A stretch of 64,000 nt of DNA from Desulfobacterales bacterium (GCA_050122475.1 JASFIV010000001.1:30637-94636), one strand, 5' to 3'; numbered from the stretch's first letter, positions 5,217 through 56,664 are shown. Program-made: numbers and translations. The notes: generated from the sequence alone by a model not told the origin.

Positions 5217-5312
5217 TTATTCGTTATTTGTTATTGGTTATATGGATTCACGATAGCCTGAATTTATGAAAAGCGACGTTCGAAGCCAATAACGAATAAC
5301 AGATAACCAATA
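5217..5312. repeat. Word-repeat hairpin (TTATTCGTTAT / TTGTTATTGG words)
   Basis: Left arm ttattcgttatttgttattggttat (5217-5241) pairs with right arm ccaataacgaataacagataaccaata (5286-5312). About 18 of 21 positions pair in the best register. Confidence 0.8.
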
Positions 5313-5353
5313 CCTTCCAGTCGAACATCTTTGAACTGTGATTGGATTTACCC

Positions 5354-6709
5354 ATGGGCGCTATTTTGCTAAAAAACTGTTTTTACATATTCGTGGCTGC
5401 GGATGAGGAAGCCCGGCGCGGTGAAGATATTCTAATCCGGGATAATCGCATTGCCAAAATTAATGCTGCGATTTCAGATCCGGTTGATCGGGTTATCGAT
5501 TGTTCGACCTGTGTGGTCATACCGGGCTTTGTGAATACGCATCACCACTTTTATCAGACCCTGACGCGCAATCTGCCCGCGGTTCAAAATGCCGAGCTGT
5601 TTGACTGGCTGGTCTATCTGTATGAGATCTGGAAATATCTGGACGAGGAGGCCGTATATTATGCTTCCTTGTTGGCCATGGGGGAGTTGCTCAAGACCGG
5701 GTGCACGTGCTCGACTGATCACCATTATGTATATCCGCAAAATGTCAGCGGGGATTTGATTGGCATTCAATTTAAGGCCGCTGCAAACCTGGGTATGCGG
5801 CTGTCACCGACCCGGGGCTCCATGTCCTTGAGTAAAAAGGACGGGGGACTACCGCCCGACAGTGTCGTGCAGACCGAAGATCAGATTCTTGAAGACAGTG
5901 AACGCGTCATTCAGCAGTATCACGACAAAAGTGAGCTGGCCATGCGCAAAATCATCCTGGCGCCTTGCAGTCCGTTTTCGGTGACCGAAGCGCTGATGAA
6001 GGAGACGGTCAAACTGGGACGCCGCTACAGCGTGTATTTGCATACGCATCTGGCGGAAACCCGCGACGAAAACGAATTCTGCCTTGAAAACTACGGACGC
6101 AAGCCTTTGCAGCTGATGGAGGAATGCGAGTTTATTGGTCGAGACGTATCCTATGCTCATGGCATCCATTTTAACGATCAGGAGCTGCAACGACTGGCGG
6201 ACACCGGCACCCACATCGCGCATTGTCCAACATCCAACATGCGATTGGGATCTGGAATCTGCCGTGTCAAAGAGATGCTGTCACTCGGGATCAACGTAGG
6301 GCTGGCGGTGGATGGCAGCGCTTCCAATGATTCATCCGATATGCTCGGAGAGCTGCGCAATGCCCTGCTGCTGCAGCGGGTTCATTACGGGGCCGCAGCC
6401 CTGTCTACCCTGGATGTGATGAAGATGGGTACGGAAAATGGTGCCCGCCTGCTGGGTTTTGAAAAGGTCGGTAAAATAAAGGAAGGCTGGGCTGCGGATC
6501 TGGCCGTATTTAACGTCGGTAAGCTGGAATACAGCGGGTCGCTGGCCGATCCTCTGGCTGCCATTATTTTCTCCGGTTACAATCATGGCGCCGAATATAC
6601 CATCGTGAATGGCCGAATTACTGTGGAGCAGGGCAGGCTGATCGGATTTGATGAAACGGAGATCATGAACAAGTGCAACGCCATATCAGAGAGAATGCTT
6701 AATGCTTAA
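5354..6709 (+). CDS. Amidohydrolase, 8-oxoguanine/guanine-deaminase-like (chlorohydrolase/cytosine deaminase family)
   Basis: Has the metal-binding NTHHHFYQTLTR motif, HLAET and the VDGSASND motif. It sits in a purine context between ygfK and a nucleobase permease. The start is taken as ATG 5354; the ORF track starts at an alternative codon at 5342. Confidence 0.7.
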   Translation: MGAILLKNCFYIFVAADEEARRGEDILIRDNRIAKINAAISDPVDRVIDCSTCVVIPGFVNTHHHFYQTLTRNLPAVQNAELFDWLVYLYEIWKYLDEEAVYYASLLAMGELLKTGCTCSTDHHYVYPQNVSGDLIGIQFKAAANLGMRLSPTRGSMSLSKKDGGLPPDSVVQTEDQILEDSERVIQQYHDKSELAMRKIILAPCSPFSVTEALMKETVKLGRRYSVYLHTHLAETRDENEFCLENYGRKPLQLMEECEFIGRDVSYAHGIHFNDQELQRLADTGTHIAHCPTSNMRLGSGICRVKEMLSLGINVGLAVDGSASNDSSDMLGELRNALLLQRVHYGAAALSTLDVMKMGTENGARLLGFEKVGKIKEGWAADLAVFNVGKLEYSGSLADPLAAIIFSGYNHGAEYTIVNGRITVEQGRLIGFDETEIMNKCNAISERMLNA

Positions 6710-6726
6710 CGGATGAAATGTTTTTT

Positions 6727-6808
6727 GCCACTAAGACACAAAGTCACAAGGAGAGTTTATATTCATCTGATTATTTATGTTCTTTGTGTTCTTCGTGCTC
6801 TTGGTGCC
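6727..6808. repeat. Word-repeat hairpin (CACAAAG-type words), first of three tandem hairpins
   Basis: gccactaagacacaaagtcacaaggagag pairs with tgttctttgtgttcttcgtgctcttggtgc. Confidence 0.75.
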
Positions 6809-6843
6809 TTTTTGGCTTAAACAAGTGTTTAACAGATTTTTAT

Positions 6844-6929
6844 TTGCCACAAAGACCCAAAGCCACCAAGACTGAATTATATTACTTTATGTTTTGTGCC
6901 CTTCGTGATCTTTGTGTCTTCGTGGTGAA
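6844..6929. repeat. Word-repeat hairpin (CACAAAG/CACGAAG family), second of three
   Basis: ttgccacaaagacccaaagccaccaagac pairs with gttttgtgcccttcgtgatctttgtgtcttcgtggtgaa. The right arm closely resembles the elements at 28.7 kb and 58.5 kb. Confidence 0.75.
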
Positions 6930-6938
6930 TCTTTATTC

Positions 6939-7013
6939 TCTCGCAAAGACGCTAAGGCGCAAAGATTTTCTATTTTTAATATCCCTTTGCGAGCTTGGCG
7001 GCTTAGCGTGAGG
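6939..7013. repeat. Word-repeat hairpin (CGCAAAGA/CGCTAAGG words), third of three
   Basis: ctctcgcaaagacgctaaggcgcaaagat pairs with atccctttgcgagcttggcggcttagcgtgagg. Confidence 0.75.
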
Positions 7014-7048
7014 CTTTGTTTTCCGGTTTAGCCGGGTCAGGAGATGCC

Positions 7049-8464
7049 ATGCAAAATTCAAAGAACGCCGTCGATCCCGCCCTGGAGATTGTTTACGGGC
7101 TGAATGACAGACCCCCTCTGGGCGAAACCCTGTTTGCGGCCCTGCAGCATCTGTTGGCCATCATTGTCGGCATTATGACGCCACCGCTGATCATTGCCAA
7201 TGTGCTGGGATTCTCCCCGGAAATGAAGGCCTATCTGATCAGCATGGCGCTTTTCGTATCCGGCCTGGCCACTTTTATTCAGGTTAAAAGAATCGGACCG
7301 GTTGGATCAGGACTCCTGAGCATTCAGGGGACCAGCTTTGCCTTTTTGGGCGCCATTATTTCCATCGGGCTTGCGGCCAAAAAGTCCGGCGCCTCCCAGG
7401 AGGAGATCCTGTGTATGATTTTAGGTGTATGTTTTGTGGGGTCTTCTATTGAAATGATCTTCAGCCGCTTTATTCCCTTGCTGCGTAAGATCATCACCCC
7501 CTTGGTCAGCGGCATTGTCGTTACCCTGATCGGCCTATCATTGCTTAAGGTCGGTATTACCGATTTTGGCGGCGGCAAATGGCTACTGGACAATAAGCCT
7601 GAATTATTTGCCAGCGGGACCAACATTTTCCTGGGCGCGCTGGTACTGTGTACCATCATTTTTTTAAACCGTAGCCAGAACAAATTTGTTCGCATGAGCG
7701 CCATTGTTATCGGTCTGGTGCTGGGTTATGCTGTGGCCGCCATGCTGGGTAAGGTCAATTTTGCGAGGCTGGGCGACATGAGCTGGCTGGCTGTTCCCCA
7801 TCCGTTTAAATATGGATTTTTTAGTTTTTCGTGGACCGCATTTATTCCAATTGCGCTGCTTTACCTGATTACAACAGTTGAATCCATCGGTGATCTAACC
7901 GCTACTTCGATGGTTTCTAAACAGCCCATTAGCGGGGACCGATATTTTAAAACCATATCCGGCGGGATCCTGGGTGATGGGGTCAACTCGGCCCTGGCAG
8001 CTCTTTTTAATTCTTTTCCAAACACCACCTTCAGTCAGAATAATGGTGTTATTCAGCTTACCGGAGTTGCCAGCCGCAAGGTCGGTTATTTTATTGCTCT
8101 GTTTCTGGTTATCGTCGGCATGTTTCCGGTAGTAGGCGGTATATTCAGCATTATCCCCAATTCCGTGCTGGGCGGAGCCACCATTATTATGTTTGGGACG
8201 GTTGCAGCAGCCGGTATTAAAATCATCGCTTCCAGCGTTATCAATCGCCGCGGTATGCTGATCATGGCCATATCCCTGGGCATGGGTCTGGGCGTTGTTT
8301 TCGTTCCCCAGATACTGGGCAAGTTCCCGGATATCATTCAAAAAATATTTGGTTCGGCCATTACCACCGGCGGCCTGACAGCTATTTTTTTAAATATCGT
8401 ACTGCCGCGCGGGGGCGTGATGGAGGAGCGGGTGAAAGATGAACCCGAACCCACGAGTGTGTAA
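7049..8464 (+). CDS. NCS2-family nucleobase (xanthine/uracil/urate-type) permease
   Basis: A polytopic membrane protein with the NCS2 signature region FSQNNGVIQLTGVASRKVG. ATG 7049 is preceded by AGGAG at 7038-7042. Confidence 0.85.
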   Translation: MQNSKNAVDPALEIVYGLNDRPPLGETLFAALQHLLAIIVGIMTPPLIIANVLGFSPEMKAYLISMALFVSGLATFIQVKRIGPVGSGLLSIQGTSFAFLGAIISIGLAAKKSGASQEEILCMILGVCFVGSSIEMIFSRFIPLLRKIITPLVSGIVVTLIGLSLLKVGITDFGGGKWLLDNKPELFASGTNIFLGALVLCTIIFLNRSQNKFVRMSAIVIGLVLGYAVAAMLGKVNFARLGDMSWLAVPHPFKYGFFSFSWTAFIPIALLYLITTVESIGDLTATSMVSKQPISGDRYFKTISGGILGDGVNSALAALFNSFPNTTFSQNNGVIQLTGVASRKVGYFIALFLVIVGMFPVVGGIFSIIPNSVLGGATIIMFGTVAAAGIKIIASSVINRRGMLIMAISLGMGLGVVFVPQILGKFPDIIQKIFGSAITTGGLTAIFLNIVLPRGGVMEERVKDEPEPTSV

Positions 8465-8470
8465 GAAAAG

Positions 8471-8653
8471 AAATTGAATATTGAAAATTGAATAATGAAT
8501 ATTTTAGGAATGCTATCTTGTATAAAGATGCTTGTCATAAAAATGAAGGGGCGTAGCGACTTCCATAAATGTTCAATTTACAATATTCAATCTTCAATAT
8601 TTTTTTAACGTAGCGTAGCGAATTCAGTAAATAATCAATATTCACTATTCAAT
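8471..8653. repeat. Word-repeat palindromic element, ATTGAATATT family, copy 3
   Basis: Left arm is aaattgaatattgaaaattgaataatgaatattt and right arm is aaatgttcaatttacaatattcaatcttcaatattt, with an extra aataatcaatattcactattcaat. The core agcgacttcc is the inverted version of the copy 2 core ggaagtcgct. The element ends immediately before the AAGGAG Shine-Dalgarno. Confidence 0.85.
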
Positions 8654-8668
8654 AAGGAGTCATTTCCA

Positions 8669-10957: not shown

Positions 10958-10960
10958 GTT

Positions 10961-11077
10961 AAAAGGACACAGATGAATACAGATATGACACAGATAGGTC
11001 AATCTCTACAAAAATGTTCAGAACTATTTAAAATTATTTCTTAAAAATCTGTGATTATCTGCGATAATCTGCGTTTT
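10961..11077. repeat. Word-repeat hairpin (ACAGAT words)
   Basis: aaaaggacacagatgaatacagatatgacacagatagg pairs with aaaaatctgtgattatctgcgataatctgcgtttt, around an AT-rich loop. Confidence 0.8.
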
Positions 11078-11118
11078 ATATTAAAACATTTCAGCTTGTT
11101 GAAATTTGGAGAGAATGA

Positions 11119-13366: not shown

Positions 13367-13401
13367 CGCCGGTAAAATCAAAATTTTCATAAAGATAGCA
13401 G

Positions 13402-13443
13402 AAAGATCGAGTAATTCTTCGAGGATTACTCGATCTTTTTTTA
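13402..13443 (+). terminator. Rho-independent terminator downstream of bfr
   Basis: Perfect stem aaagatcgagtaat / attactcgatcttt followed by a T-run. Confidence 0.8.
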
Positions 13444-16159: not shown

Positions 16160-16169
16160 TATTCAATAT

Positions 16170-16403
16170 CAGGTTTCAGTGTTCAGGTGTCAGTAACCAA
16201 GGCTTAAAGGTTTAGGGTTCTGGATTCACGGTTTGCGCACCAGATGACAGACAACAGATAACAGAGGACAGAATGTGTTGTTGAAAATCAAAAAATCGTC
16301 ATCTGCCTTCTGTTATCTAACCGCTGAACCTTGCCTGCCGTGCCGTAGCATTCGCGAAGGCGGCTGAGCGGTGGACCTTTGAATCCTGAACCTCTGAACC
16401 GAT
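16170..16403. repeat. Nested word-repeat hairpins (TTCAGG/GAACC outer arms; ACAGA-word inner hairpin; GC-rich second inner hairpin)
   Basis: Outer arms aaaggtttagggttctggattcacggtt and acctttgaatcctgaacctctgaaccgat pair. The inner hairpin pairs cagatgacagacaacagataacagaggacaga with tcgtcatctgccttctgttatct. Confidence 0.75.
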
Positions 16404-16407
16404 GAAC

Positions 16408-16440
16408 AAAAATGGGGCCCGGAAAGTGAATCCAGGCCCC
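16408..16440 (-). terminator. Rho-independent terminator downstream of fhs
   Basis: On the minus strand, stem GGGGCC..GGCCCC is followed by ATTTTTG, about 30 nt after the fhs stop. Confidence 0.65.
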
Positions 16441-16468
16441 ATCGCTTATATGGTTCATATTTGCCTAA

Positions 16469-18232: not shown

Positions 18233-18447
18233 CTACTTAACCCTCCTTTCCAGTTTTTGATAGAGCTGTTGCGAAATCGTATCAAGGAACCCTTTGTGAC
18301 CCACTTTATTATAAAGCACTCCAAGCTGCATTAAAAACACCATGCGTTTACCATCTGACCGGGCGTTTGGCAAGTAATTTGTTATCAAAGGTGTCAGGTA
18401 TCCCACCTTCGCCTGAAAAGCTATGGCGCGGCAAGCAGTTGACAGTT

Positions 18448-18536
18448 CTCAGAGGACAGAGGTCAGACGACAGATGAGATAGGCCGGAAAATGATGCAGC
18501 CTTTCTGACCTCTGTCTTCTGTCTTCTGTTTTCTGA
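18448..18536. repeat. Word-repeat hairpin (CAGAGGACAGAGG words)
   Basis: tctcagaggacagaggtcagacgacagatgag pairs with ctttctgacctctgtcttctgtcttctgttttctga. Confidence 0.8.
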
Positions 18537-18541
18537 CACAT

Positions 18542-22363: not shown

Positions 22364-24358
22364 ATGGAATCAGGATGTATCGTCGAATATATAGACCGCC
22401 AGAAAATAATGTGTGCGGTTGTCCTTGAAGTCAAGAACCAGCGGCTACGGTTGTTAACGGAAAACAATCGAGAGGTCAACCTTTCGCGTAAACGACTGCT
22501 GCACAGAGACAAAATACGCCTTGATCTTGCCCTGGGACGAGATCGGACGGTCGAGGCTTTAAAAGAAGTTGTTCGCAAACGGGAAGAACTCATTAATAAT
22601 ATTGATATCCGCGATTTATGGGAATTACTGAATACTGAACAAGATTGGATCGACCTGGCGACCATGACCGAGTTTTGCTTTCCGGAAAGTGCATCTGGCG
22701 ATCACGAAGCAGCCGTTATGCGGGCGTTATTTAATGACCGGCTCTATTTCAAATTTAATCCAGACGGGTTTCGCCCCAATTCAGAAAGACAGGTAGAATT
22801 GCTTGCGGCCCAGCGAAAAGAGGCGCAACGGAAGCAGGAGCTGATTGAAGCCGGTGGTAGCTGGCTCAAAAGCATGCTGAATTCAACCGGACCCATTGAT
22901 CTTGCTTCGGTTGCAACGAATGTTCAGGAGTTTGTTGAAATCCTGAAGTCGTACTATCTTTTTGGTAAAGAAAGTAATGACTATAAAATTGCCAAGAGCT
23001 TGACGGCCAGAGCTGGTGTTGAAAGTCTGCAGAATATATTCCGGGTCCTCGTGCGATTGGGTGTGTTCGATGAAAATGAAAACCTTGAGCTGCTGCGCCA
23101 CCAGATATCAGCTGATTTTAATGAAACGGTTTTGAACCGTGCGGCACAGATTGTCAGCTCAAGCCCGATGGTGACTGCTGCTGAGCGACGTGATCTGACC
23201 CACCTGTCCCTGATGACTATCGATGGCCAGGGAACGCTTGATTTTGATGACGCCATCAGCATAGAAGAAACAAATGATGCATTTCGACTGGGCGTTCACA
23301 TCGCGGATGTTGGTCACTTCATTAAAAAATATGATGTTGTTGATCAAGAGGCGAGCGTGCGCGGCAGCTCCACTTACATGCCGGATCAGAAAATTTCTAT
23401 GCTGCCATCGGTTCTGGCAGAAGGCCTCTGCAGCCTAAAGGCCGGCGAGCTGCGTCCGGCCATCAGCATTATGATTGATCTGAGCCCGCAGGCTGAAGTT
23501 GTAAGCACCGAGATCTTGCAAAGCCTGATTAAAGTCAAGCATCAGTTGACCTATTACGATGTCAATAATGCCGTGGATGAAATTCCACAGATGCATATTT
23601 TACAGGATATCGCCAAAAAATATCGCCAGAAAAGGTTGGATGAGGGGGCCATACAGATTACGGTGCCGGAGATCAGCATCTGGGTCAATGAAAACCAGGA
23701 TGTTTCTGTTAATCAGGTAAACCGGGAAAGTCCGGGCAGGATGCTGGTTTCAGAGCTAATGATCATGGCCAACTGGTTAATGGCAAATCATTTAAAAGAG
23801 CGCCAGTTACCGGCCATTTTCAGATCGCAACGCGAGCCCCGGGAACGGCTATATAAAAACAATGCCGGTACGCTTTATCAGAACTGGATGCAACGCCGGC
23901 TTCTCAGCCGCTTCATATTGAACACCAAGCCCAATCGGCATTCAGGGTTGGGATTAGATGCATACATCACCGCAACTTCTCCGATTCGAAAATATTCGGA
24001 TCTAATCAATCAGCGCCAGATCAGGGCATCACTCGGATTGGAAACGGCGTATAGCTCCGATCAAATTTCGGATATCATAAATTCCCTCGAGATACCGATG
24101 AGTCTTGTGGGGCGCCTTCAATACACACGCCATCGGTATTGGCTATTAAAATATCTTGAAAATCAAATCGGGCAAAAAGAAGAGGCCATTGTCCTGCATA
24201 AGGCCCGCAGAAAATATCAGATTCTTTTAACTCAGTATATGTTGGAGTGCGATTTACCGATATCCGGCGGTATTGAATTAAAGCCGGAAGATTTGATCCA
24301 GGTGACCATTCAGCGCGTTAGTGCAAGGCAGGATATTATCCAAGTCGCCATCGGCTAG
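22364..24358 (+). CDS. RNase II/R-family 3'-5' exoribonuclease (RNB domain)
   Basis: The RNB catalytic region MTIDGQGTLDFDDAISIE is present and there is a C-terminal S1-like segment. The start is uncertain (ATG 22364 versus TTG 22328). Confidence 0.75.
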   Translation: MESGCIVEYIDRQKIMCAVVLEVKNQRLRLLTENNREVNLSRKRLLHRDKIRLDLALGRDRTVEALKEVVRKREELINNIDIRDLWELLNTEQDWIDLATMTEFCFPESASGDHEAAVMRALFNDRLYFKFNPDGFRPNSERQVELLAAQRKEAQRKQELIEAGGSWLKSMLNSTGPIDLASVATNVQEFVEILKSYYLFGKESNDYKIAKSLTARAGVESLQNIFRVLVRLGVFDENENLELLRHQISADFNETVLNRAAQIVSSSPMVTAAERRDLTHLSLMTIDGQGTLDFDDAISIEETNDAFRLGVHIADVGHFIKKYDVVDQEASVRGSSTYMPDQKISMLPSVLAEGLCSLKAGELRPAISIMIDLSPQAEVVSTEILQSLIKVKHQLTYYDVNNAVDEIPQMHILQDIAKKYRQKRLDEGAIQITVPEISIWVNENQDVSVNQVNRESPGRMLVSELMIMANWLMANHLKERQLPAIFRSQREPRERLYKNNAGTLYQNWMQRRLLSRFILNTKPNRHSGLGLDAYITATSPIRKYSDLINQRQIRASLGLETAYSSDQISDIINSLEIPMSLVGRLQYTRHRYWLLKYLENQIGQKEEAIVLHKARRKYQILLTQYMLECDLPISGGIELKPEDLIQVTIQRVSARQDIIQVAIG

Positions 24359-24374
24359 TACCTGAATTTTGCAT

Positions 24375-24492
24375 GAAAATTAATGAGAAGTTAAGCTAAC
24401 ACTAAATGTCACCAAGCTAAGCAAATTATAGAAGTAATATAAAATACCGATCAGGTATGAAGGATTAACATCATTTTATCTCATTAATTTTC
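24375..24492. repeat. Perfect 14-bp inverted repeat GAAAATTAATGAGA / TCTCATTAATTTTC flanking about 90 nt
   Basis: Arms lie at 24375-24388 and 24479-24492. The left arm is part of a ~27-nt motif that recurs at 30728-30745. Confidence 0.8.
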
Positions 24493-24508
24493 ACCCGGCG
24501 GGCGAGCC

Positions 24509-24592
24509 GGAGGCTTCCATCTGCTGCGTTATTCAGGGCGAAGCATAGTTCACTATCGCTTAACCCTGAAGTGCCTTGCATATGAAAGCCTC
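24509..24592. repeat. Long imperfect hairpin
   Basis: ggaggcttccatctgctgcgttattcagggcgaagc pairs with gcttaaccctgaagtgccttgcatatgaaagcctc. Confidence 0.7.
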
Positions 24593-24894
24593 TGACTCGT
24601 GCAAAGGTCAGGTATCTCTTCCCTTTCTAAATGGCCTTTTTTCCGCTGGCCTGCGTTCTCCGCCGTTTTCTGTCTGCGACGTACTTCAAGTACGCCGCAA
24701 ACAAAAAACCTTGTGCGGATTGTTGAACACCTTAACTATCATAAGGTGAGATGTGAAATCCCGCCGTAAGGCGGGGCCCACCAAAAAAATGCTCATCTAT
24801 AAAGGGAAATGATATCATATTAAATTAAATTCCACGTTTTATGAGATAAGGCAGAGATTACCGGTAACGCCGTAATATATTGTTATGGGCTATC

Positions 24895-25026
24895 GGAATA
24901 TTGGAATGCTGGAATATTGGATTTGAAGGGATGAGATCTGCTAAGATTCAGATACCCTTAATTCAAAATTAAAATCAGGATATCATCCTCCTTCCATACC
25001 CAATCTTCCATTATTCCATTATTCCA
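24895..25026. repeat. Word-repeat hairpin, GGAATATTGGAAT family, copy 1
   Basis: ggaatattggaatgctggaatattgga pairs with ttccatacccaatcttccattattccattattcca. The same family occurs at 56538-56664. Confidence 0.8.
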
Positions 25027-25095
25027 GGTGGCAACTGAAGGGCAGGAACACCCCTTGACATCAGGGTAATTTTTGACGCTCAATGTCTGATCGCA

Positions 25096-26719: not shown

Positions 26720-26881
26720 TTTCTTCTCCGAAGTAACAAATTCTTCCTGATCGTTTGCCTGGTGCTGTCCAATACGCAAGTGCTCATACCATCAGGTTTA
26801 CCGGTTGCCAGTTGAGCCAGTTAGGCCCGTCAAAAAAAGGAATAATAGCGGATTTTTTTACCGGCTCAACGTGCGCAACCC

Positions 26882-28510: not shown

Positions 28511-28644
28511 GATAAATCAGATTTGTTTATGCCTATAAATTTTCTTTCCATGACAGAATGCAATTGAAAAGTCAAACCGCCCGGATTCCAGTTGCTTTGC
28601 GGGCTCATACAGATTTTGACAATTGTGGATTTCAGGTTTAAAAA

Positions 28645-28822
28645 TAATATACGGTTATTCAGAAAGCTCAAGTAGGGCAATCATAACCACGAAAGGCACG
28701 AAGGGCACGAAGGACACGAAAGGACAAAATTAAAATGATGTGTTTTCCCTTTGTGATCTTCGTGTTCTTTGTGGTGAGATATATATCAGCCGTATTCAAC
28801 TGGAGTTTCCCAGATAACAGCG
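28645..28822. repeat. ~170-bp element with internal CACGAAG-word hairpin, copy A (inverted partner at 58441-58605)
   Basis: The reverse complement of 58441-58605 aligns along the whole length with only scattered mismatches and one extra cacgaaagg word in copy A. The internal hairpin is at about 28685-28790. Confidence 0.85.
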
Positions 28823-28968
28823 AAATAATATTATCGAGGACGAGCACGAGTATTATGCTGTGCAAAGTTCTTTCGTGCCAGCCGCGTCCTTGTTTTCGAG
28901 CACCATCTTACAAAGAATATTTCCATCAATCTGAATATTGCAAGTTACTGTTAGGTAACGATATCGGG

Positions 28969-34423: not shown

Positions 34424-34637
34424 GCTTTTTATACCGCAATCACCATCAAAGATTGTTCATCAAAATTTGTGCGCGAAAAAGCCAAAACCCGAGTAATCGG
34501 GTGACGGAAAGCCACGGGTCCGCTGGAGGCGGATCGCCGGGTTGCCAAAGCGAGTTCGCAAAGCTGGTTACCGGATAAAGGTGGCACAGCTTTTTTTTTG
34601 GCAAAAGCCCGGAAATGGACAAAAAGGAGGCTTTGCT

Positions 34638-38746: not shown

Positions 38747-38797
38747 ACCGACATCTCCGCTTTCGATATAATCAATTTTCAGTTATCGTTTTTCAGG

Positions 38798-38872
38798 TCT
38801 CTGGCTTCTAGCTGCTAGCAACTGATTCCCCGCTTCCCGCCAGAAGCAAGAAGCGAGAAGCCAGCGGCCAGA
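38798..38872. repeat. Word-repeat hairpin (CTGGCTTCT/AGAAGC words)
   Basis: tctctggcttctagctgctagc pairs with gccagaagcaagaagcgagaagccagcggccaga. Confidence 0.75.
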
Positions 38873-38950
38873 AATATTGAATCTGAATTAAGACTTAGTA
38901 CGAAAACATAAAAGTATCAAGGGACTGCTGATTGAATATTCGGGTTTAGG

Positions 38951-46186: not shown

Positions 46187-46206
46187 GCATCAATCCGTAC
46201 CTAAAT

Positions 46207-46312
46207 CGGTTGAGCCCGTTGAGCCCGTTTAGCCGGTTGAACCGGTTAAAATCGGAAATATGTCTGATTCTATGTTTATGGACTAACGGGCAACGGGCTA
46301 AACCGGCCAACC
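46207..46312. repeat. Word-repeat hairpin (GAGCCCGTT words)
   Basis: cggttgagcccgttgagcccgtttagccggttgaaccggtt pairs with taacgggcaacgggctaaaccggccaacc. Confidence 0.8.
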
Positions 46313-46345
46313 TAAAACCGTGATCGCCTATTTTTGCGAAAGCCT

Positions 46346-49765: not shown

Positions 49766-49872
49766 AATCGTCTTGCCCTCGAAGATACCGACGCCATTGA
49801 TGATGCCGTTTGGCCCAACGCATACAAAAATCGGAATGAGCCAACCTCAGCAGTTTTATCGATGCCGGAGAC

Positions 49873-50862
49873 CTACCATCGAATCAGCGCACTACCCCAG
49901 GTCAACCCACCACCGAAGACGGGCAAACAGATTAAATCGTCGGCCTTGATGCTGCCGTCGCGCGCGGCTTCATCCAGAGAAATTGCGCACGAGGCTGAAG
50001 AAATATTGCCATATTTTTGCAGCGTCAGATAAAAACGCTCAAAGGGGATCTTTAACGATCGGGCAATATTTTGAAACATGCGGATATTGGCTTGATGGGG
50101 AATAAACCAGTCAACGTCAGCCACATTTAAATCGTTGAATTCAAGGGCTTCATTTATGGCGCCGATAAAATGCCGCACGGCCACACGAAAACTCAAACTC
50201 GCTTCGATTAATTTCAGAGTGTGCCGCTTATCGTCGACACTTTCGTGTGAAATCGGCGTGGTTTTCGAACCGCCCCCGGGCAGCAGCAAATCCTGTCCGT
50301 TGGCACCATCGGTGTGAATGTGACTGGACAGCAGCTCATGACCGTCCGTTTCGATGGTCAGTACGGCGGCACCGGAACCATCGCCCCACAGAATGCAGGT
50401 TGATCGATCCGTCCAATCAAGGGTTCGGGTCATGATTTCAGAAGCCACCACCAGGACGCTTTGGCAGCTTTTGTTTTTGAGGTACTGTTCGGCCACGTTT
50501 AAACCGAAAATAAAGCCGGAACATGCTGCAGTGATATCAAAGGTCACCGCCTGAGGGGCGTCCAGTTTGGCCTGCAGCCAGTTCGCAGCCGAGGGACAGC
50601 AGGTATCCGGTGTTATGGTGGCCATGATAATTAAGTCAATGTCTTTGGCCGTCAGACCGGCGGCCTCCAGAGCCTTCAGTGAGGCCGCACACCCCAGGTC
50701 GGCTGTGGTGACCTCCGGATCTGCTATTCTTCGTTCCACCACACCGGTGCGCTTGCGGATCCATTCATCGGTGGTGTCCAGCCCCATATCTGCCAGATCA
50801 TCGTTGGTCAGCCGTTTTGTCGGGACATGCGAGCCGGTTCCCAGAATGCGAATTGATTCCAC
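49873..50862 (-). CDS. fabH: 3-oxoacyl-ACP synthase III
   Basis: The catalytic triad contexts are present: AACSGF (Cys), PHQAN (His) and GNISSAS (Asn). The start is GTG with GGAG upstream. Confidence 0.88.
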   Translation of the reverse strand: MESIRILGTGSHVPTKRLTNDDLADMGLDTTDEWIRKRTGVVERRIADPEVTTADLGCAASLKALEAAGLTAKDIDLIIMATITPDTCCPSAANWLQAKLDAPQAVTFDITAACSGFIFGLNVAEQYLKNKSCQSVLVVASEIMTRTLDWTDRSTCILWGDGSGAAVLTIETDGHELLSSHIHTDGANGQDLLLPGGGSKTTPISHESVDDKRHTLKLIEASLSFRVAVRHFIGAINEALEFNDLNVADVDWFIPHQANIRMFQNIARSLKIPFERFYLTLQKYGNISSASCAISLDEAARDGSIKADDLICLPVFGGGLTWGSALIRW

Positions 50863-50943
50863 GTTTCATTACTCCGGAAATTCGAATTAGAAGTCGGTTG
50901 GACGTTTAATATTGTTGACCTTGTAAAAAGTCGAAATCATCAA

Positions 50944-51038
50944 GTGTTTAGTATTTAGTGTTTGGTGTTTGGTAGGAACCATTTGACTTTATATCGAAAT
51001 TTTAGAATGCTAACCACTAAACACCAAATAGGAAACAC
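50944..51038. repeat. Word-repeat hairpin (GTGTTTAGT/GTGTTTGGT words)
   Basis: gtgtttagtatttagtgtttggtgtttggtagg pairs with ctaaccactaaacaccaaataggaaacac. Confidence 0.8.
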
Positions 51039-51078
51039 ACTCAATAAAAGGTTGCCGTCCTGACCTGTCAGGAGATTA

Positions 51079-52236: not shown

Positions 52237-52292
52237 GGATCTTGTGCCATTTCGTTGATGGACTTATTTATGGGTCAGATTCTTCAATTTTT

Positions 52293-52328
52293 CAACAAAA
52301 AAAGGACGGCCTGTTACAGCCGCCCTTT
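52293..52328 (-). terminator. Rho-independent terminator downstream of the Cys-rich mini-protein gene
   Basis: On the minus strand, stem aaagggcggc / gccgtccttt (one mismatch) is followed by a T-run, 15 nt after the stop codon. Confidence 0.75.
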
Positions 52329-52342
52329 GGTTGTTTGGGGAT

Positions 52343-52564
52343 CTATGCAATGGGTGCCGGCTTACAAAGATGTTCCTGCTCCATTGCCACGCGCCCGCAG
52401 CCGCCACATACAAATTTCATAGCTGCCAGTTTGTCTTTGCACTGATGGGTGTGATCCGTTTCGGTGGCACCGCAGAAACTGCAATTGGCCTTATCGCCGC
52501 ACGGATTGCAAAGATGCCCGGGTGCATTGGCGACCGCACCGCAGTTTTTACATGTATAAGCCAT
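52343..52564 (-). CDS. 73-aa Cys-rich protein with three CxxCG-x8-H-x-C repeats (probable metal-binding mini-protein)
   Basis: The repeats are CKNCGAVANAPGHLCNPC, CSFCGATETDHTHQC and CGGCGRVAMEQEHLC. AAGGAG lies 8 nt upstream of the ATG and the gene has its own terminator. Confidence 0.7.
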   Translation of the reverse strand: MAYTCKNCGAVANAPGHLCNPCGDKANCSFCGATETDHTHQCKDKLAAMKFVCGGCGRVAMEQEHLCKPAPIA

Positions 52565-52660
52565 GATCTATCTCCTTAATTTGAATTCATGATAATTCAT
52601 CAATGTTCTGGAAAATATGAGTACGGTTGTCAAAAAAGTCAAGAAGAGTAGACACTGATT

Positions 52661-55600
52661 TTAGGGTGATGGACGGGGCGACCTCTTTTCCTCTGCCGCT
52701 GGTTTGTCTTTTGAACCGGGAAGAACCGGCTGGATGATAGTTATCGGCAGTTTGAGGGTTCTTTCCAGAATGCCAAGCAACCCGGATCCCACTGCAGTCG
52801 GTGATAGCGGGATGACATCCGGATCACCCAGATCCCCAACTGCCCTGAATGGAATCGAGATCAGATTACCGCCCAAAATGTTGCCGACCAGAGGGATGAT
52901 TTTAACGATCCGGTCGACGGTTTTAAACGGTGCGACCAGCACAATCAGATCAACCTTATTTTCGGTTAGATCGATATCACCTTCAATGGCGATACCCATG
53001 GACGGGCTGTCGATAGAGGTATCGGAGATAATCAGCTTGCCGTCTTCAAATACGCCATTGGCTATCATCGAATTATACGCAAAGCCCTTGCCTTTCAGAT
53101 CCGGAACTTCGCCTCGGTAGATTTCGGTGACATTCAGCAATGCAAATATTTTCGCCAGCATGCCGAAACGATATATCCGGCCGTCATTGGAGTTGAATGT
53201 CAGGTCTCCGGTCAGAGATTTGGGAAATGCGCTGGGCCTGGCCTTGGCCAAAAGCTCCCCACTGAGATTAAAGCTGCCCGCCATCAAATGCTGTTTTTCA
53301 AACAGGCAGGCAAGGCTGCTGTCCAGGTCCCCCTCTTTGGCGTCCGGATTAAAATAAAGCTCAAACGTATCGCCTGAAACCTTGAAAATGCCAGGAAATT
53401 GGATGCCGCAAAGGTCTGCTTTGCGTACGACAATTCGGGTAATATCTTTTTCAAAGGTGATGTCAGCGTGAACTGGACGCCAGGTAAAAGATTCATATGT
53501 AAAATTTTCCAGCTCGACAAGTAATCCCCCCTGCAGCTTCATCTTTTCTTCGGTTGCGGTCGCCTTTTCGGTGCTGGCTATCTGGTCAATTTGTTCCCAT
53601 TTTAAACGATCGGCTTTCAACTGCATTTCAAGCGATAATGCATCTTCAGAAAAACTCGCGCCGCCCTGAATATTAATCTGGCTATCTTCCCATCCGATGT
53701 GCACATCGCTTAAATCAATACGACCGCTCACCCCTGCAGCCGCGGGGGCATCCTTGGCAATAAAATGGGCTGTTTTAATCAGAAAGGGTTCTTTGAATGA
53801 ATCTGATACCAGATCCATTGCTTTTATGTCGCCGTCGATCCGAAATTGCCAGGCCTTGGAAGCACCAACCGGCCCTTTAAACGCCAAATCGGTGAGCATC
53901 AATTGGCCCTGGGTAGCTTTGTAACCCTTGAACATTTTAGCGAGCGTTTCAAAGGATACCAGCCAGGGGTAGAGCTCTGCAATTTGAATGCCTGCAGAAT
54001 CGGCCTTGATTTCGAATAAGGGTATTTTACCCCACTGCTTGCCCAGGGTCAGCCCGCCAATCGTTGATGTGCCGAATCTGGCATCGGTTTCTTGCAGGTC
54101 AATGCGCATATGGCGCCACAATACGTCCCCGCCGTTTAGTTCTATGTCGGTCGGAAACGTTGCCGAGCGGATATGCCATTTTTTAATGGCCCCGCTGAGA
54201 TTCATTTTATGCTTCGATTTTGAGCCGATCGGGCCCTCAAATTTCAAATTCGTAAATGCCAGGGTTCCTTTTAATACGGGGACGTCTTTGACGGTTTGCT
54301 TCAAGCTATTATGGGATTTCAACCAGGTATAGACTTCGTCCAGATTGATTACGCTTTCACCGGTGCTGGCAGTCACCGAAGCCGCCTTGCCCCATTTGAT
54401 TTTGGCAGACAGGCCTGCAAATAATGATTGCCCCACCTGGGTGTTCATCTTGATGACCTTCAACTGGTTCTTGTCACAACTAAATCGGCCCTGGGCGATC
54501 GTCAACCGGCCCGGCAGCTGCGGTGAACTCAGGCTGACATTTTGTATCGCACCAGTGGATATTACCTGCCAACGGGTGGGTTCTAAAAGCGGTCCTGCAA
54601 GGTTGACGTTTTGTAAAGAGACACCACCGTCGATGGTCTCGATCTGCCGCAGGTGACGTTCAAGTGCTTGATATTGCACCAGCCATGCTTGCATTTGGGC
54701 TAAATCGATATGGCTGGACGTTAAGGATACTTCTAAAAATGAGGATTTTTCCCACCCAAAGCGAGTCGACAGCCCGGATAAGCTTGATTTTCCAATGCGC
54801 GCATCACTGTTTGTCAATTCGATCTGGTCGCCGTCTAAAACGAAACTGCCGCCTTTAACCATGACCGGATAAGGAATTCGCTGATAAACAGCATTCACAG
54901 AAAAATCAGAAGCCATAACTTTCACATTAACGTCTTGCAAATCCTCGCCGATAATCAACATGCCCAGGGCATTGCCTTCAAATTTCTTAAAGCGCTTTAA
55001 TTCTTTCTGGAATTGTTTGTCCTTGACCAGATTAGCTAAAACAGAGGGAAGCTGGGCCAGATCCGCCTGGACGAGCGCTTCAACATGGAACGGAGCCGTA
55101 TCCTTTGTCAGCGGGATGGACAGTTTCCCTTTTTTCGCAAATGTATTGCCCATTTGTGCTTCGGCATTTTCACCGGTTAAAATGCCGTTTGCAATCATTG
55201 CGTCACCCTGTACATTTTCCAATTCCAGCGAGCCCACCGGGACAGAGATTTTTCCGCCCACCAGTTTTCCCTGTATCACGATTTGTTTTTCGTCAATCAG
55301 TTGGGCCCAATCCGATGCCTGGGTTTTTAGCGTGATCCGTTGAAAATCACCGTCCCGAAGAATGTTGAATATATCCGATACGGTTTCTGAGTCTTCGGTC
55401 AGCGCCAGCGCGATTTTTTGAGCTGTTGCCACCTTGATCCGCTGGCCTTCCACCTCCATATCAATAGAGGACTGCCGGGGATCGATATTCAACTTGCCTG
55501 CCAGGCTTATCGCTGGATCGGTCAAATCAAGCTGAGATAGATTCAACGACAGGCTGTTTCCATCAAAGCGCAAATTCGCCTGCAGGCGGGTATCATTTAT

Positions 55601-56455
55601 TTTCAGCTCTTTATTTGCGCGCCGCCAATACATATACGGTATTGCGGCTTCAACATCCGCCTGAAGGTTATCAGGACCATCTGTATTCAGGTTCAATATC
55701 ATGTTTGCCCGGGCATTGGTCATTTTCAGGCTGGATTCCGGAAATAGGTATTCAACCACGGCATGCGGCCGCAACTGATTCAATGTAATCTGGCTGTTAA
55801 GCTTTAAGCCCGGTTCTGTGTATTGGCCCTTGATGCTAATATTCTCCCAGAAGTTCGACTGGCACTGGGCGGAAAACTCAATGGCTGCACCTTTATGTCT
55901 TATCTGGCTGGTGACGCCCTGAAGCGCTAAAACACGTTGCGCGCCTTGGTAGAAATGGATTCGGCCGTTACGAATATTTATCGCAATACGGGGAATTTTG
56001 AATTGCGGTATAGATTGAAGGGTCGATTTTAGCCAGTCGCCTGGGGTGTCTAAGGTAAATGGCTTGCGAGGAATTGATTCGGTTTTAGATGCTTCCCGAA
56101 CTTGAACCTTGATTTTCGGAGATCGTGCACGGGCAACTCGAATTTCAAGATCACCGGCAAATAGCGGCAGGATTTTCGGATAGATTCTAAGTGAATCCAC
56201 CGTGCCTTGAATATTGTCGGGTAAGGTGAAGCTGACATCGGATATAACAACGTGCGGGCGGGGGAAAAACGCCATATCGAGTCGTTGGTATTCGATTTTG
56301 CCCCCCAGATCCTCTGCATATATGCGTTTGATTTCCGTTTTGACGGTTTCAAGGTTAATCAACTTGGGGGTAGCGATTAGCAGAATGATCAGCAAGCACA
56401 ATAAAATTGTCCCAATGCTGATGAGCGTAAACCATATTTTGCGGTGTTTGGGCAT
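52661..56455 (-). CDS. AsmA-like/YhdP-like giant envelope protein
   Basis: 1264 aa with a single N-terminal TM helix (IWFTLISIGTILLCLLIILLIA). The rest is long, beta-rich and low in Cys. The call rests on architecture only. Confidence 0.6.
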   Translation of the reverse strand: MPKHRKIWFTLISIGTILLCLLIILLIATPKLINLETVKTEIKRIYAEDLGGKIEYQRLDMAFFPRPHVVISDVSFTLPDNIQGTVDSLRIYPKILPLFAGDLEIRVARARSPKIKVQVREASKTESIPRKPFTLDTPGDWLKSTLQSIPQFKIPRIAINIRNGRIHFYQGAQRVLALQGVTSQIRHKGAAIEFSAQCQSNFWENISIKGQYTEPGLKLNSQITLNQLRPHAVVEYLFPESSLKMTNARANMILNLNTDGPDNLQADVEAAIPYMYWRRANKELKINDTRLQANLRFDGNSLSLNLSQLDLTDPAISLAGKLNIDPRQSSIDMEVEGQRIKVATAQKIALALTEDSETVSDIFNILRDGDFQRITLKTQASDWAQLIDEKQIVIQGKLVGGKISVPVGSLELENVQGDAMIANGILTGENAEAQMGNTFAKKGKLSIPLTKDTAPFHVEALVQADLAQLPSVLANLVKDKQFQKELKRFKKFEGNALGMLIIGEDLQDVNVKVMASDFSVNAVYQRIPYPVMVKGGSFVLDGDQIELTNSDARIGKSSLSGLSTRFGWEKSSFLEVSLTSSHIDLAQMQAWLVQYQALERHLRQIETIDGGVSLQNVNLAGPLLEPTRWQVISTGAIQNVSLSSPQLPGRLTIAQGRFSCDKNQLKVIKMNTQVGQSLFAGLSAKIKWGKAASVTASTGESVINLDEVYTWLKSHNSLKQTVKDVPVLKGTLAFTNLKFEGPIGSKSKHKMNLSGAIKKWHIRSATFPTDIELNGGDVLWRHMRIDLQETDARFGTSTIGGLTLGKQWGKIPLFEIKADSAGIQIAELYPWLVSFETLAKMFKGYKATQGQLMLTDLAFKGPVGASKAWQFRIDGDIKAMDLVSDSFKEPFLIKTAHFIAKDAPAAAGVSGRIDLSDVHIGWEDSQINIQGGASFSEDALSLEMQLKADRLKWEQIDQIASTEKATATEEKMKLQGGLLVELENFTYESFTWRPVHADITFEKDITRIVVRKADLCGIQFPGIFKVSGDTFELYFNPDAKEGDLDSSLACLFEKQHLMAGSFNLSGELLAKARPSAFPKSLTGDLTFNSNDGRIYRFGMLAKIFALLNVTEIYRGEVPDLKGKGFAYNSMIANGVFEDGKLIISDTSIDSPSMGIAIEGDIDLTENKVDLIVLVAPFKTVDRIVKIIPLVGNILGGNLISIPFRAVGDLGDPDVIPLSPTAVGSGLLGILERTLKLPITIIQPVLPGSKDKPAAEEKRSPRPSP

Positions 56456-56537
56456 TATGGTCTTTCCAAATTTGATTACTTTGCAACCCGAGTATTATCG
56501 TTGAGGTCTGTAATTGCCTGTACACCTAAGACCCAGT

Positions 56538-56664
56538 GAATTGGAATACTGGAATGTTGGAATATTGGAACCGGTGTAATGATCAATGCGCGTTTATAGC
56601 GGGCCTGATCAGGTTTAAACTCATGGGATCATCAGTTCAGCTTACCCATTATTCCATTATTCCA
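56538..56664. repeat. Word-repeat hairpin, GGAATATTGGAAT family, copy 2
   Basis: gaattggaatactggaatgttggaatattggaa pairs with cccattattccattattcca. Confidence 0.8.

Follow-up and report, generated by a model that had tools for sequence, protein, structure and literature searches.

REP, BIME and REPIN sequences are pervasive intergenic palindromes that often lie in operons directly past stop codons, occur as singlets or as inverted doublets forming long hairpins, combine into mosaics and are targets of IS insertion. REPs have no internal tandem words, and REPIN/RAYT movement produces no target-site duplication. In pneumococcal BOX an internal module with a 45-nt unit is repeated in tandem, and the number of copies varies. 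The BrickBuilt element of Porphyromonas gingivalis likewise has a tandem internal module whose copy number varies, with a 23-nt unit (PMC4596501). A REP is a single palindrome of 20-40 nt, one end of which bears a conserved GTAG or CGTC tag (PMC3733652). Arrays of the heptamer TAACTGA occur in Beggiatoaceae, Cyanobacteria and Bacteroidetes (MacGregor 2015, PMC4679880), and the BOGUAY genome contains 169 direct sets and 1 inverted set (PMC4679880). The closest precedent for the elements described below comes from Geobacter metallireducens, in the form of its paired tandem-repeat sites (Aklujkar et al. 2009, PMC2700814). In each pair, two arrays lie in intergenic DNA on opposite strands, separated by a variable distance, and each array repeats a word of 7-9 nt in 3-5 tandem copies (GTTGCTYN, TCTCCGTS[Y] and MTYCTGA in classes 1-3); the sites number tens of copies per genome, have IS insertions adjacent to them and include hybrid pairs. 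They are described in supplementary alignments only and were read as sites for IHF/HU or global regulators, with no report of mobility, target-site duplication, slippage polymorphism or a hairpin interpretation.

We analysed a stretch of 64,000 nt from an uncultured Desulfobacterales bacterium, a relative of sulfate reducers (the window), for which 38 proteins are predicted, 30 of them scanned against Pfam. The window contains 19 elements, here called word hairpins, at 18 loci (E10 is nested inside E9), each with arms built from short words. An initial sequence-only reading had matched them to no described element class, but the class is not entirely undescribed: the G. metallireducens sites (PMC2700814) have the same architecture and come from a related lineage (formerly Deltaproteobacteria), whereas the words differ and only the TCAG/CTGA words of E9 loosely resemble class 3 (MTYCTGA). 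We suggest, with a probability of roughly 0.6, that several families of selfish, MITE/REP-like elements have colonised the intergenic DNA, each element being a short (80-240 nt), non-coding and imperfect palindrome. At least one family, CACGAAG, is a mobile mini-transposon, and the elements are neither one REP/MITE family nor purely local products.

The word hairpins cover 2289 of the 8360 intergenic nucleotides (27%), or 3.6% of the window, and are present in 16 of the 28 gaps that measure 100 nt or more, in agreement with the initial impression that most of the larger gaps are filled. A TRF search at period 6-12 returned 37 non-redundant arrays in the window, 27 of which were intergenic. In 200 dinucleotide-preserving shuffles, with coding and non-coding segments shuffled separately, intergenic arrays of this period numbered 1.4 ± 1.2 (maximum 4), giving an enrichment of ~20-fold, and arrays with at least three copies numbered 19, every one intergenic, against 0.38 expected from the shuffles. 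The initial observation was confirmed: every word listed at the outset was present at or near its assigned place. E1, E2 and E19 fall beyond the stretch to which they had been thought to extend. Assembly contigs end at word arrays, and one relative (L363) has an N gap at E15. Convergent-gene gaps, divergent-gene gaps and post-terminator positions are among the neighbourhoods in which elements lie.

Most intergenic arrays had a reverse-complement partner no more than 220 nt away, with local alignment scores of 19-43; reverse-only and complement-only controls scored mostly 10-18, with five values of 19-29, and coding arrays scored 10-17. Arm-to-arm alignments extend over 15-32 nt with 74-95% (mean 83%) Watson-Crick pairing. 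When 18 stretches were folded as DNA (E9 left out, and E14 and E19 represented by their central 120-130 nt only), 11 outperformed 198 or more of the 200 shuffles (z -2.8 to -6.0), and folding was weaker for E4, E5, E8, E10, E13 and E18. Loops measure from about 19 to about 175 nt rather than 20-70 nt as first supposed, and the arms of some elements, for example E13, are scarcely periodic. Strand was assigned to E14 (minus) and E19 (plus).

Eight of the elements lie in the first part of the window. E1 (435-557; arms ~438-470 and 524-557; DNA fold z -4.1) is an ATTGAAT-word hairpin that spans the gap from a stop codon at 444 to a ribosome-binding site at 565, and its inner stem is GC-rich, with GCGAAGC on the minus strand at 479. 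E2 (1768-1901; arms ~1770-1802 and 1867-1900; z -5.8), also built from ATTGAAT, belongs to the same family in the same orientation, has the core GCGGAGC at 1812 and shares 83-85% loop identity with E1. The third ATTGAAT-word hairpin, E7 (8466-8656; arms ~8472-8504 and 8567-8602; z -5.0), has loop sequence in common with E1 and E2 in the opposite orientation, GCGTAGC at 8551 and 8613, and a third array, a solo ATTCAAT array at 8628-8654 adjoining the xdh ribosome-binding site. Between them lie E3 (5214-5316; GTTATTC words; arms ~5215-5243 and 5288-5316; z -4.4), E4 (6722-6812; CACAAAG words; arms ~6727-6752 and 6777-6808; weak fold, z -1.5), E5 (6842-6930; CACAAAG/CCCAAAG words; arms ~6846-6872 and 6893-6927) and E6 (6936-7016; CGCAAAGA words; arms ~6938-6966 and 6985-7013; z -4.3), and E8 follows (10963-11078; ACAGAT/ATCTG words; arms ~10968-10997 and 11046-11075; weak fold, z -1.9).

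E1, E2, E3, E4-6, E7 and E8 lie between co-directional genes of one cluster, and E1-E8 begin 0-14 nt past a stop codon and end ahead of the next ribosome-binding site. This placement would suit hairpins that act as RNA, that is, as intercistronic or 3′-UTR stem-loops under selection for structure rather than sequence, which like E. coli REP/BIME would block 3′ exonucleases, offer RNase III/E processing sites or attenuate read-through; the predicted RNA stems are also long, and one fold is common to different sequences. We nevertheless find such a role quite doubtful. RNAalifold applied to the CACGAAG-family alignment returned a covariation term of +1.4 with compensatory changes in 2 of 44 pairs, no excess of G·U pairs was found on the sense strand (9 sense vs 16 antisense, p = 0.23), and 51 of the 84 mispairs in the arms (61%) are non-wobble. 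With covariation and a sense-strand G·U excess absent and most mispairs non-wobble, there is no sign of selection on RNA pairing, and the earlier suggestion that structure is selected finds no support. Both strands fold with equal energy (summed RNA minimum free energy -504 sense vs -500 antisense kcal/mol), divergent gene pairs and the region past a canonical terminator contain hairpins too, and hairpins are dispensable in close strains.

The terminator case concerns E9 (16165-16406), an outer TTCAGG/CTGAAC-word hairpin (arms ~16167-16197 and 16373-16404) that encloses the CAGATAA/GACAGA-word hairpin E10 (16238-16322; arms ~16241-16272 and 16296-16320); E9 comes immediately after the canonical FTHFS terminator (16411-16443). 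E11 (18440-18540; CAGAGGA/TTCTGTC words; arms ~18449-18476 and 18503-18536; z -3.3) leaves 2 nt between its end and the stop codon of an ABC-transporter gene. Intrinsic terminators have a GC-rich stem, a 3-8 nt loop and a U tract. Not one word hairpin was called as a terminator in the first 20,000 bases, which hold E1-E11, and we rejected this identity; the canonical terminators, at 16411-16443 and 13419-13433, are separate features. No word hairpin matched Rfam 15 at gathering score, where the only match in the window was a c-di-GMP-I riboswitch away from the elements; weak matches on elements were limited to sub-threshold mir-787 on E14 and E19.

The remaining elements other than E14 and E19 are E12 (24885-25036; GGAATATT words; arms ~24889-24922 and 25000-25033; z -3.4), E13 (26795-26876; weak GTTGAGCC-type hairpin; arms ~26803-26822 and 26860-26876; z -0.5), which is the least convincing of the 19, E15 (38788-38876; CTGGCTTCT/AGAAGC words; arms ~38796-38816 and 38839-38873; z -2.8), E16 (46203-46314; CGGTTGAGC words; arms ~46207-46247 and 46284-46310; z -6.0), E17 (50938-51042; AGTGTTT/AAACAC words; arms ~50943-50975 and 51004-51038; z -3.1) and E18 (56530-56672; ATTGGAAT words; arms ~56536-56571 and 56643-56668). 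The words do differ between loci, as had been proposed, and the window holds at least eight word families rather than copies of one or two known REP/MITE families. The families are nonetheless fewer than the words first listed, since ATTGAAT recurs three times, GGAATATT twice, CAGANNN three times and CRCRAAG words (CACGAAG, CACAAAG, CGCAAAG) five times. E12 and E18, at unlinked loci, have arms that are 90-92% identical around unrelated loops. Conversely, homologous elements with a common GAGCG(N)AGCGA core bear different, mutually complementary words, and this indicates that arms are renewed locally. Across the GAGCGNAGCGA-core superfamily it is the core that is conserved, with divergent arms, the reverse of a classical MITE, in which the termini are conserved, and this counts against a MITE-like reading.

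Presence and word identity were compared at orthologous gaps in relatives, and strains that are 97-99% identical differ by single-word indels, by partial deletions or by a wholly different word hairpin in the same gap. L365, whose adjacent OEP protein is 99% identical, differs from the window at E16 in two indels only, -9 nt (left arm) and +8 nt (right arm). In L083, an 88%-identical relative, the E3 gap holds a different, ACAGGATTT-word hairpin, the E5 right arm and E6 left arm are deleted to leave a hybrid hairpin, and the site of the 190-nt E7 carries merely a short loop-less palindrome. The E10 ortholog in L014 has fewer, reshuffled words, and downstream of FTHFS L014, L003 and L001 differ from the window. 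E15 has an ortholog in L368, with a TTCAGGTGTCAG-word hairpin in its place in L366. At the E17 site an ortholog is present in L366, L364 is empty and L363 has undergone a partial deletion that left the distal right arm alone; at the E18 site L167 retains the right arm alone and L170 nothing. In L363 (97-98% nucleotide identity) the E16 gap is taken by a hairpin of ~240 nt that is built from CCAAAT words and unrelated to E16, an allele replacement that could reflect recombination rather than transposition.

These comparisons bear on the proposal, made in the sequence-only reading, of a local origin and upkeep of the hairpins: slippage would enlarge a seed palindrome or a solo array, and template switching would copy one arm onto the other, so that mobility would be the exception and the architecture a mutational attractor. 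The word-unit polymorphism in both arms of E16, the words reshuffled in L014, the L083 palindrome that corresponds to E7, and the different complementary words around homologous cores are all consistent with such a process, as are similar hairpins with unrelated words in Nitrospirota, in Desulfosarcina alkanivorans PL12 (complete genome) and in an Olavius symbiont. The distribution of target-site duplications points the same way: no direct repeat of at least 8 nt was found at the boundaries of the 17 elements other than E14 and E19. There, a lone 8-mer near E4 matches the neighbouring E5 and not the far flank of E4 itself, the L364 empty site for E17 has at most a 3-nt AAG on either side, and the 7-mer ACCTAAA around E16 is absent from E16 orthologs. 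Against local origin stand the clean insertion of E19 described below, the presence of the CACGAAG family in five genomes and the 90-92% identical arms of E12 and E18; solo arms can be remnants of full hairpins (E17, L363 vs L364), and gradual growth would not produce a change as abrupt as the exchange of a whole element between strains 97-98% identical. We regard a wholly local origin as unlikely. Word-unit slippage can be seen directly in the indels of E14/E19 and of E16, and words change around a homologous core, but the elements are not purely local products.

The CACGAAG family (E14 and E19) is a textbook MITE. E14 (28651-28822, minus strand) is 172 nt long with word arms at ~28686-28724 and 28750-28786, E19 (58441-58603, plus strand) is 163 nt long with word arms at ~58487-58516 and 58537-58567, and neither contains an ORF. 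The two are 95% identical over 129 nt, their homology extends over ~170 nt to include 45-nt flanks outside the words, and their length difference (163-172 nt) is one 9-nt word. The terminal inverted repeats are imperfect, with CGCGGTTATCTGGGAAACTCCAG pairing with the reverse complement ACGGTTATGCAGAAAGCTCAAG at about 15/21 positions, and columns 2-20 of the family alignment pair with columns 154-172 in 10 of 10 copies. E19 is bounded by a 9-bp target-site duplication, ATAAATTAA (9/9 match), at 58432-58440, which includes the stop codon, and at 58604-58612, and the corresponding site in L163 (97% identity to the window) is cleanly empty, with a single copy of ATAAATTAA; in other relatives L167 is empty and L164 contains the element. 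E14 is likewise bounded by a 9-bp direct repeat, AAATAATAT (9/9), at 28642-28650 and 28823-28831. Ten further matches were found in four other Desulfobacterales MAGs, eight of them full length, and the flanking 9-mers of these eight matched at 8/9, 7/9, 7/9, 7/9 and 6/9 in five copies, had no match in two and were ambiguous in one. The claim that simple copying does not account for the elements is thus right in that more than one or two REP/MITE sequences are present, but copying itself is evident from E14, the E19 insertion and the ten matches elsewhere. No parent transposase or autonomous IS was found in the window, in the flanks of truncated CACGAAG copies or on plasmids.

The Correia/NEMIS, ERIC, BOX and BrickBuilt MITEs resemble the window elements in being short, non-coding and intergenic, in occurring in many copies, and in having terminal inverted repeats and folding as palindromes. 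E14 and E19 show the MITE hallmarks, including target-site duplication and an empty site, whereas most window families have no detectable target-site duplication and their parent IS is not known; that duplications are demonstrable in the CACGAAG family only counts against a mobile-element reading. The 7-9 nt unit also differs from the 23 nt of BrickBuilt and 45 nt of BOX, and the window arrays are two, inverted and stem-forming. The elements resemble REP/BIME/REPIN as pervasive intergenic palindromes frequently at stop codons, but we rejected REP/REPIN identity, as there is no conserved end tetranucleotide and the arms are tandem words; the 9-bp duplication sets E19 apart from REPIN/RAYT, and no Y1-transposase domain of a RAYT was found in the Pfam scan of 30 of the 38 window proteins. 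Heptamer arrays (cyanobacterial STRR, the long simple sequence repeats of Mrazek 2007, TAACTGA) are likewise intergenic-only, with ~7-nt words often just upstream of start codons, unit-increment indels between strains, assembly breaks, a patchy spread across phyla and slippage as proposed cause. They are, however, almost always direct with one dominant word per genome, whereas the window has inverted, hairpin-forming pairs and many words.

All three ATTGAAT elements of the window sit in the purine-catabolism cluster, and in the window, L083, L115, L121 and L125 the xdh ribosome-binding site is immediately preceded by ATTGAAT-type words; in L123, a sixth Desulfobacterales genome, such words come within 70 nt of the xdh start. 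Such positions raise the idea that the arrays are bound by proteins, the hairpin being a by-product of sites that face both ways. Binding to tandem sites is known for the omega repressor (heptad arrays) and for MetJ (arrays of the 8-bp metbox). Candidate binders would be cooperative repressors reading tandem 7-8 bp words, the nucleoid proteins IHF/HU or a so far unidentified global regulator, along the lines suggested for G. metallireducens, or RNA-binding factors such as S1, Csp or CsrA next to start codons, and arrays adjoin ribosome-binding sites yet leave them uncovered. PMC2700814 and PMC4679880 provide published precedents. Nevertheless, at least eight unrelated words would call for an equal number of binding proteins, strains that are 97-99% identical vary in which elements they have, lack or have replaced, elements also lie between convergent genes and after terminators, word periods of 7, 8, 9 and 10 nt have no common helical phasing, and no candidate binding protein was found encoded nearby in the window. 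Taken as a general explanation, binding sites seem rather improbable to us. Individual arrays may have been co-opted, for example the ATTGAAT words upstream of xdh, and function could explain both their persistence and that of E17, which is kept at 84% identity in an 88%-identical relative.

Under our preferred reading of several selfish families, whole hairpins would be copied into AT-rich intergenic sites, often directly at a stop codon. The CACGAAG family would move by cut-or-copy transposition with a 9-bp target duplication, probably served in trans by a DDE-type transposase. Once settled, the arms would behave as hypermutable micro-arrays of 2-5 tandem copies of a 7-9 nt word, winning or dropping whole words via replication slippage. 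Their complementarity would be kept by propagation of the elements as whole palindromes and probably by arm-by-arm correction through hairpin-templated template switching. Because long palindromes are unstable, elements would suffer partial deletion, leaving solo arms, or be replaced by another family in the same hot-spot gap. The elements would serve no required host function. We conclude that the word hairpins of this Desulfobacterales bacterium look unusual, yet are essentially a selfish-DNA phenomenon.

Tandem arrays with a period of 6–12 were identified in the window with TRF, yielding 37 non-redundant arrays, 27 of which are intergenic, compared with 1.4 ± 1.2 intergenic arrays (maximum 4) expected from 200 dinucleotide-preserving shuffles. 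All 19 arrays with at least three copies were intergenic (0.38 expected). Most intergenic arrays had a reverse-complement partner within 220 nt, with partner scores of 19–43, compared with 10–18 for most controls (five control values were 19–29) and 10–17 for coding arrays. The paired arms show 74–95% Watson-Crick complementarity, and 11 of 18 stretches gave stronger folds than at least 198 of 200 shuffles. A palindrome finder that demands strict Watson-Crick pairing returned 16 palindromes, nine of them overlapping the 19 word hairpins, and missed the others because the arms are only ~83% complementary; it was replaced for final detection by TRF with the reverse-complement partner test. The resulting catalogue holds 19 hairpins (E1–E19), three of which lie beyond the range covered by the sequence-only reading, and of the 28 gaps that measure 100 nt or more they fill 16, accounting for 27% of intergenic bases. 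Array enrichment, partner pairing and folding thus bear out the claim of pervasive word-repeat hairpins in the gaps, and we conclude that the feature is real and pervasive. The accompanying claim, that different loci carry different words, was correct in that every listed word was found, but words recur between loci: ATTGAAT three times, GGAATATT twice, CRCRAAG words five times and CAGANNN three times. GGAATAAT is a further array word beside ATTGAAT and CACGAAG.

The gene content of the window is housekeeping and catabolic (a purine/xanthine-dehydrogenase cluster, FTHFS, RNase II, MurJ, FabH, NifU and others), and no transposase was found among the 30 window proteins scanned against Pfam. Relatives of FTHFS and of the permease place the genome among uncultured Desulfobacterales. 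Near-identical contigs from JGI sediment metagenomes and one NCBI MAG are 99.9% identical and represent the same population, and are therefore uninformative for comparison. The sole Rfam match in the window at the gathering score is a c-di-GMP-I (GGC-type) riboswitch (34472–34550, + strand; 66 bits) upstream of a GNA1162-like lipoprotein gene. Downstream of RNase II lies a strongly structured non-coding stretch of ~260 nt (24356–24614) with no Rfam match; it is 83% (BLAST) to 87% (alignment) identical to positions 5856–6114 of locus L168, where it has other gene neighbours and follows a cysteine desulfurase, and it may represent a candidate small RNA or some other type of mobile non-coding module. 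Just ahead of E3, a small and almost perfect palindrome, CTCAATTGAGTGAAACTCAATTGAG (5189–5213), overlaps the stop codon of a 1132-aa oxidoreductase gene. The gene at 56860–58440, encoding a TPR-alcohol-dehydrogenase fusion, is variable in its N-terminal TPR region (56896–57306), which is missing in relatives L165–L168, and L163, a strain of 97% identity, carries 218 extra nt at window position 57309 (L163 2917–3136).

Selection for structure had been offered as one explanation for the hairpins, and the G·U asymmetry check did not support it: in co-directional gaps, the counts were 9 in the sense and 16 in the antisense direction (p = 0.23). Non-wobble mispairs made up 51 of 84 in hairpins between co-directional genes, and summed RNA folding energies were equal for the two strands. 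Among E1–E11 (20 kb scanned) no terminator-like hairpins were found, and canonical terminators sit alongside the elements. None of the elements matched Rfam at the gathering score; an E-value threshold gave two sub-threshold mir-787 matches, to E14 and E19. The lack of strand bias, the equal energies and the missing terminator and Rfam matches, together with the dispensability of hairpins in close strains, argue against a required RNA structure. On anatomical grounds, the elements are not read as CRISPRs, terminators or riboswitches.

At least one family of word hairpins is mobile. E14 (28651–28822, − strand) and E19 (58441–58603, + strand) are oppositely oriented copies of one ~170-nt element, with 95% identity over 129 nt, and their common sequence extends ~45 nt on either side of the word hairpin. 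An autonomous IS partner of this CACGAAG-family element would have ends that begin CGCGGTTATCTG and would make 9-bp duplications. Over 54393–60638 the window has a 97%-identical counterpart in a metagenome contig, L163, which lacks E19 exactly: in the window AAAATAAATTAA is followed by the 163-nt element, ATAAATTAA and ATCC, and in L163 AAAATAAATTAA runs directly into ATCA. E19 is therefore an insertion that duplicated a 9-bp target site, and the duplicated stretch includes the upstream gene's stop codon. E14 has a perfect 9-mer of its own, AAATAATAT, on both sides. A scan for the end of the element gave ten further matches in four Desulfobacterales MAGs, eight of them full length (155–163 nt); the flanking 9-mers of these eight match at 6–8 of 9 positions in five cases, show no match in two and are ambiguous in one.

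The terminal inverted repeats of the family are imperfect, and the word hairpin forms the middle of the MITE, with copies differing by whole 9-nt words. Ten aligned copies gave a covariation term of +1.4 and two compensatory pairs of 44; the copies simply decay. No match to E19 was found in plasmids, and no transposase-like ORF was seen beside the truncated copies in L233 and L237 when ORF translations were read by eye. Two loci bounded by inverted GGAAT arrays (L250 and L351) were considered as autonomous ISs and rejected, since they encode ordinary genes. Around the other 17 elements no target-site duplications were found; an ACCTAAA 7-mer at E16 was rejected as a duplication because orthologs lack a conserved copy.

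Turnover at the other hairpin sites is as rapid as in the CACGAAG family. At E16 (46203–46314), a locus with a 99% identical adjacent OEP protein (L365) differs from the window in two respects only: its left arm lacks 9 nt and its right arm has 8 nt inserted. Diverged orthologs of E16 are kept in relatives at 87–88%, and in L363 (97–98% nucleotide identity) and L364 (88%) the site holds an unrelated CCAAAT-word hairpin of ~240 nt. For E17 (50938–51042), an ortholog is kept in L366 and the site is empty in L364; in L363 one arm and the loop have been deleted to leave a solo array, so solo arms can be remnants. E15 (38788–38876) has an ortholog in L368 and is replaced by a TTCAGG-word hairpin in L366. 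E18 is reduced to its right arm in L167 and is absent from L170. The 88%-identical L083 has another word hairpin in the E3 gap, rearranged E4–E6 and, at E7, a short palindrome without a loop. Downstream (3′) of FTHFS, the closest relative carries a reshuffled ortholog of E9 and the nested E10, another relative a different-word hairpin, and others none. The L363 scaffold also has a run of Ns (4157–4257) exactly at the position of E15, which fits with such elements breaking short-read assemblies.

These comparisons bear on the proposal of the sequence-only reading that the hairpins arise by a local generative process of slippage plus template switching. That idea is supported by word-unit indels, which are the most frequent kind of difference among copies and among strains, and by replacement of words in both arms around a kept core, but at least one family is copied by insertion. 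When eight elements from five genomes were aligned, a homologous core emerged: words, T(A/T)AGG, a variable stretch, GRGCGNAGCGA, TTCCACA and words again. The arms around it consist of ATTGAAT, GACGAAT, CTAAAGT or CGATGTT words that are mutually complementary in any one element, and therefore the words of both arms have been replaced within one element lineage while the core stayed. Slippage within arms with arm-to-arm conversion would be a plausible route. The GGAATATT family shows the reverse, as the arms of E12 and E18 are 90–92% identical and their loops unrelated. GAGCG(A/G)AGCGA, which contains GCGNAGC, occurs 19 times in 2.5 Mb (window plus loci) against ~2.4 expected, mostly within ~15 nt of a word array. 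Sites include window positions 479, 1812, 8551 and 8613 and loci L123, L250, L259, L262, L270, L290, L302, L304, L347 and L351. GCGNAGC corresponds to the DNA mini-hairpin of high stability described by Hirao and colleagues. In the GGAAT family, GAGCG(A/G)AGCGA lies at the outer end of a high-copy repeat where contigs break.

Tandem ATTGAAT/TTGTAAT words lie directly upstream of the RBS of the xanthine dehydrogenase (xdh) large-subunit gene in five Desulfobacterales genomes (window 8628–8654; L083 ~5926–5975; L115 ~326–350; L121 ~494–520; L125 ~690–720). A loose regular expression for these arrays gave mostly spurious coding matches, and only those checked by eye were used. Where compared, the permeases of array-bearing genomes are only ~64% identical to that of the window, the close relative L083 being at 94%. 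All three ATTGAAT hairpins of the window (E1, E2 and E7) fall within the purine cluster. The xdh-upstream words may be a conserved cis-regulatory element or just a persistent hot spot.

Tandem-word hairpins were found here in Desulfobacterota and Nitrospirota, with related solo arrays in Bacteroidota, KSB1 and Chlamydiota. Other words form paired arrays in an Olavius symbiont, the cultivated Desulfosarcina alkanivorans PL12 (L058) and two Nitrospirota MAGs; paired-array density in the relatives' loci (557 kb) is about nine-fold below that of the window. The 19-mer CCATTATTCCATTATTCCA occurs in at least 120 stretches from many phyla. Among the matches listed, it forms long solo arrays in Bacteroidota, has an inverted partner within 260 nt in 38 of 114 arrays, and contig ends often fall in its arrays. 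Bacteroidota MAGs (L243–L362, e.g. L249, L267, L338 and L245) carry long solo (C/T)ATTCCAT octamer arrays, some of ~20 or more units, that often adjoin arrays of other words, so that whole intergenic regions there are successive word arrays.

Supplementary figures for G. metallireducens depict the same architecture as "putative global regulator binding sites" (PMC2700814), intergenic heptamer arrays have been described in Beggiatoaceae, cyanobacteria and Bacteroidetes (PMC4679880), and P. gingivalis has a MITE with an internal minisatellite (PMC4596501). We found no published description of word-hairpin MITEs in Desulfobacterales. The explanation we favour is that the hairpins belong to several families of palindromic repeats, mobile or dispersed, with arms of slippage-prone tandem words. 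A bolder joint reading, which we consider unlikely (perhaps one chance in seven), is that they form a distinct cross-phylum class whose arms are rewritten in concert by a structure-templated process, with some elements co-opted. Rewriting would proceed by slippage and hairpin-templated conversion, possibly nucleated by the GCGNAGC mini-hairpin core; words could then change freely, with architecture and core retained, and some arrays (for example the ATTGAAT words ahead of xdh) would now be regulon-specific control elements. If true, bacterial non-coding DNA would here be evolving in concert in a new way, distinct from ordinary MITE decay.

The hairpins also affect annotation. The longest-ORF starts of four genes lie inside or upstream of hairpins (501, 1803, 28735 and 58721), and the elements can therefore mislead gene callers. 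Likely true starts with an RBS lie past the element at 579 and 1915 for two of these genes; the start of the gene after E14 is assumed to lie beyond 28831, and for the fourth gene inspection of the sequence points to a start at 58742. Making up a quarter of intergenic DNA and changing between strains that are 97–99% identical, word hairpins are a major and so far overlooked cause of micro-diversity, broken assemblies and spurious ORF starts in Desulfobacterales MAGs, as well as ready-made strain markers. They provide a natural system for the co-evolution of long palindromes and micro-satellite-like arrays through slippage, template switching and palindrome deletion, and they let the unexplained "global regulator sites" of Geobacter be read in mechanistic terms. 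Should some arrays have been co-opted, as is possible for ATTGAAT before xdh, they would show mobile hairpins seeding regulatory sequence.
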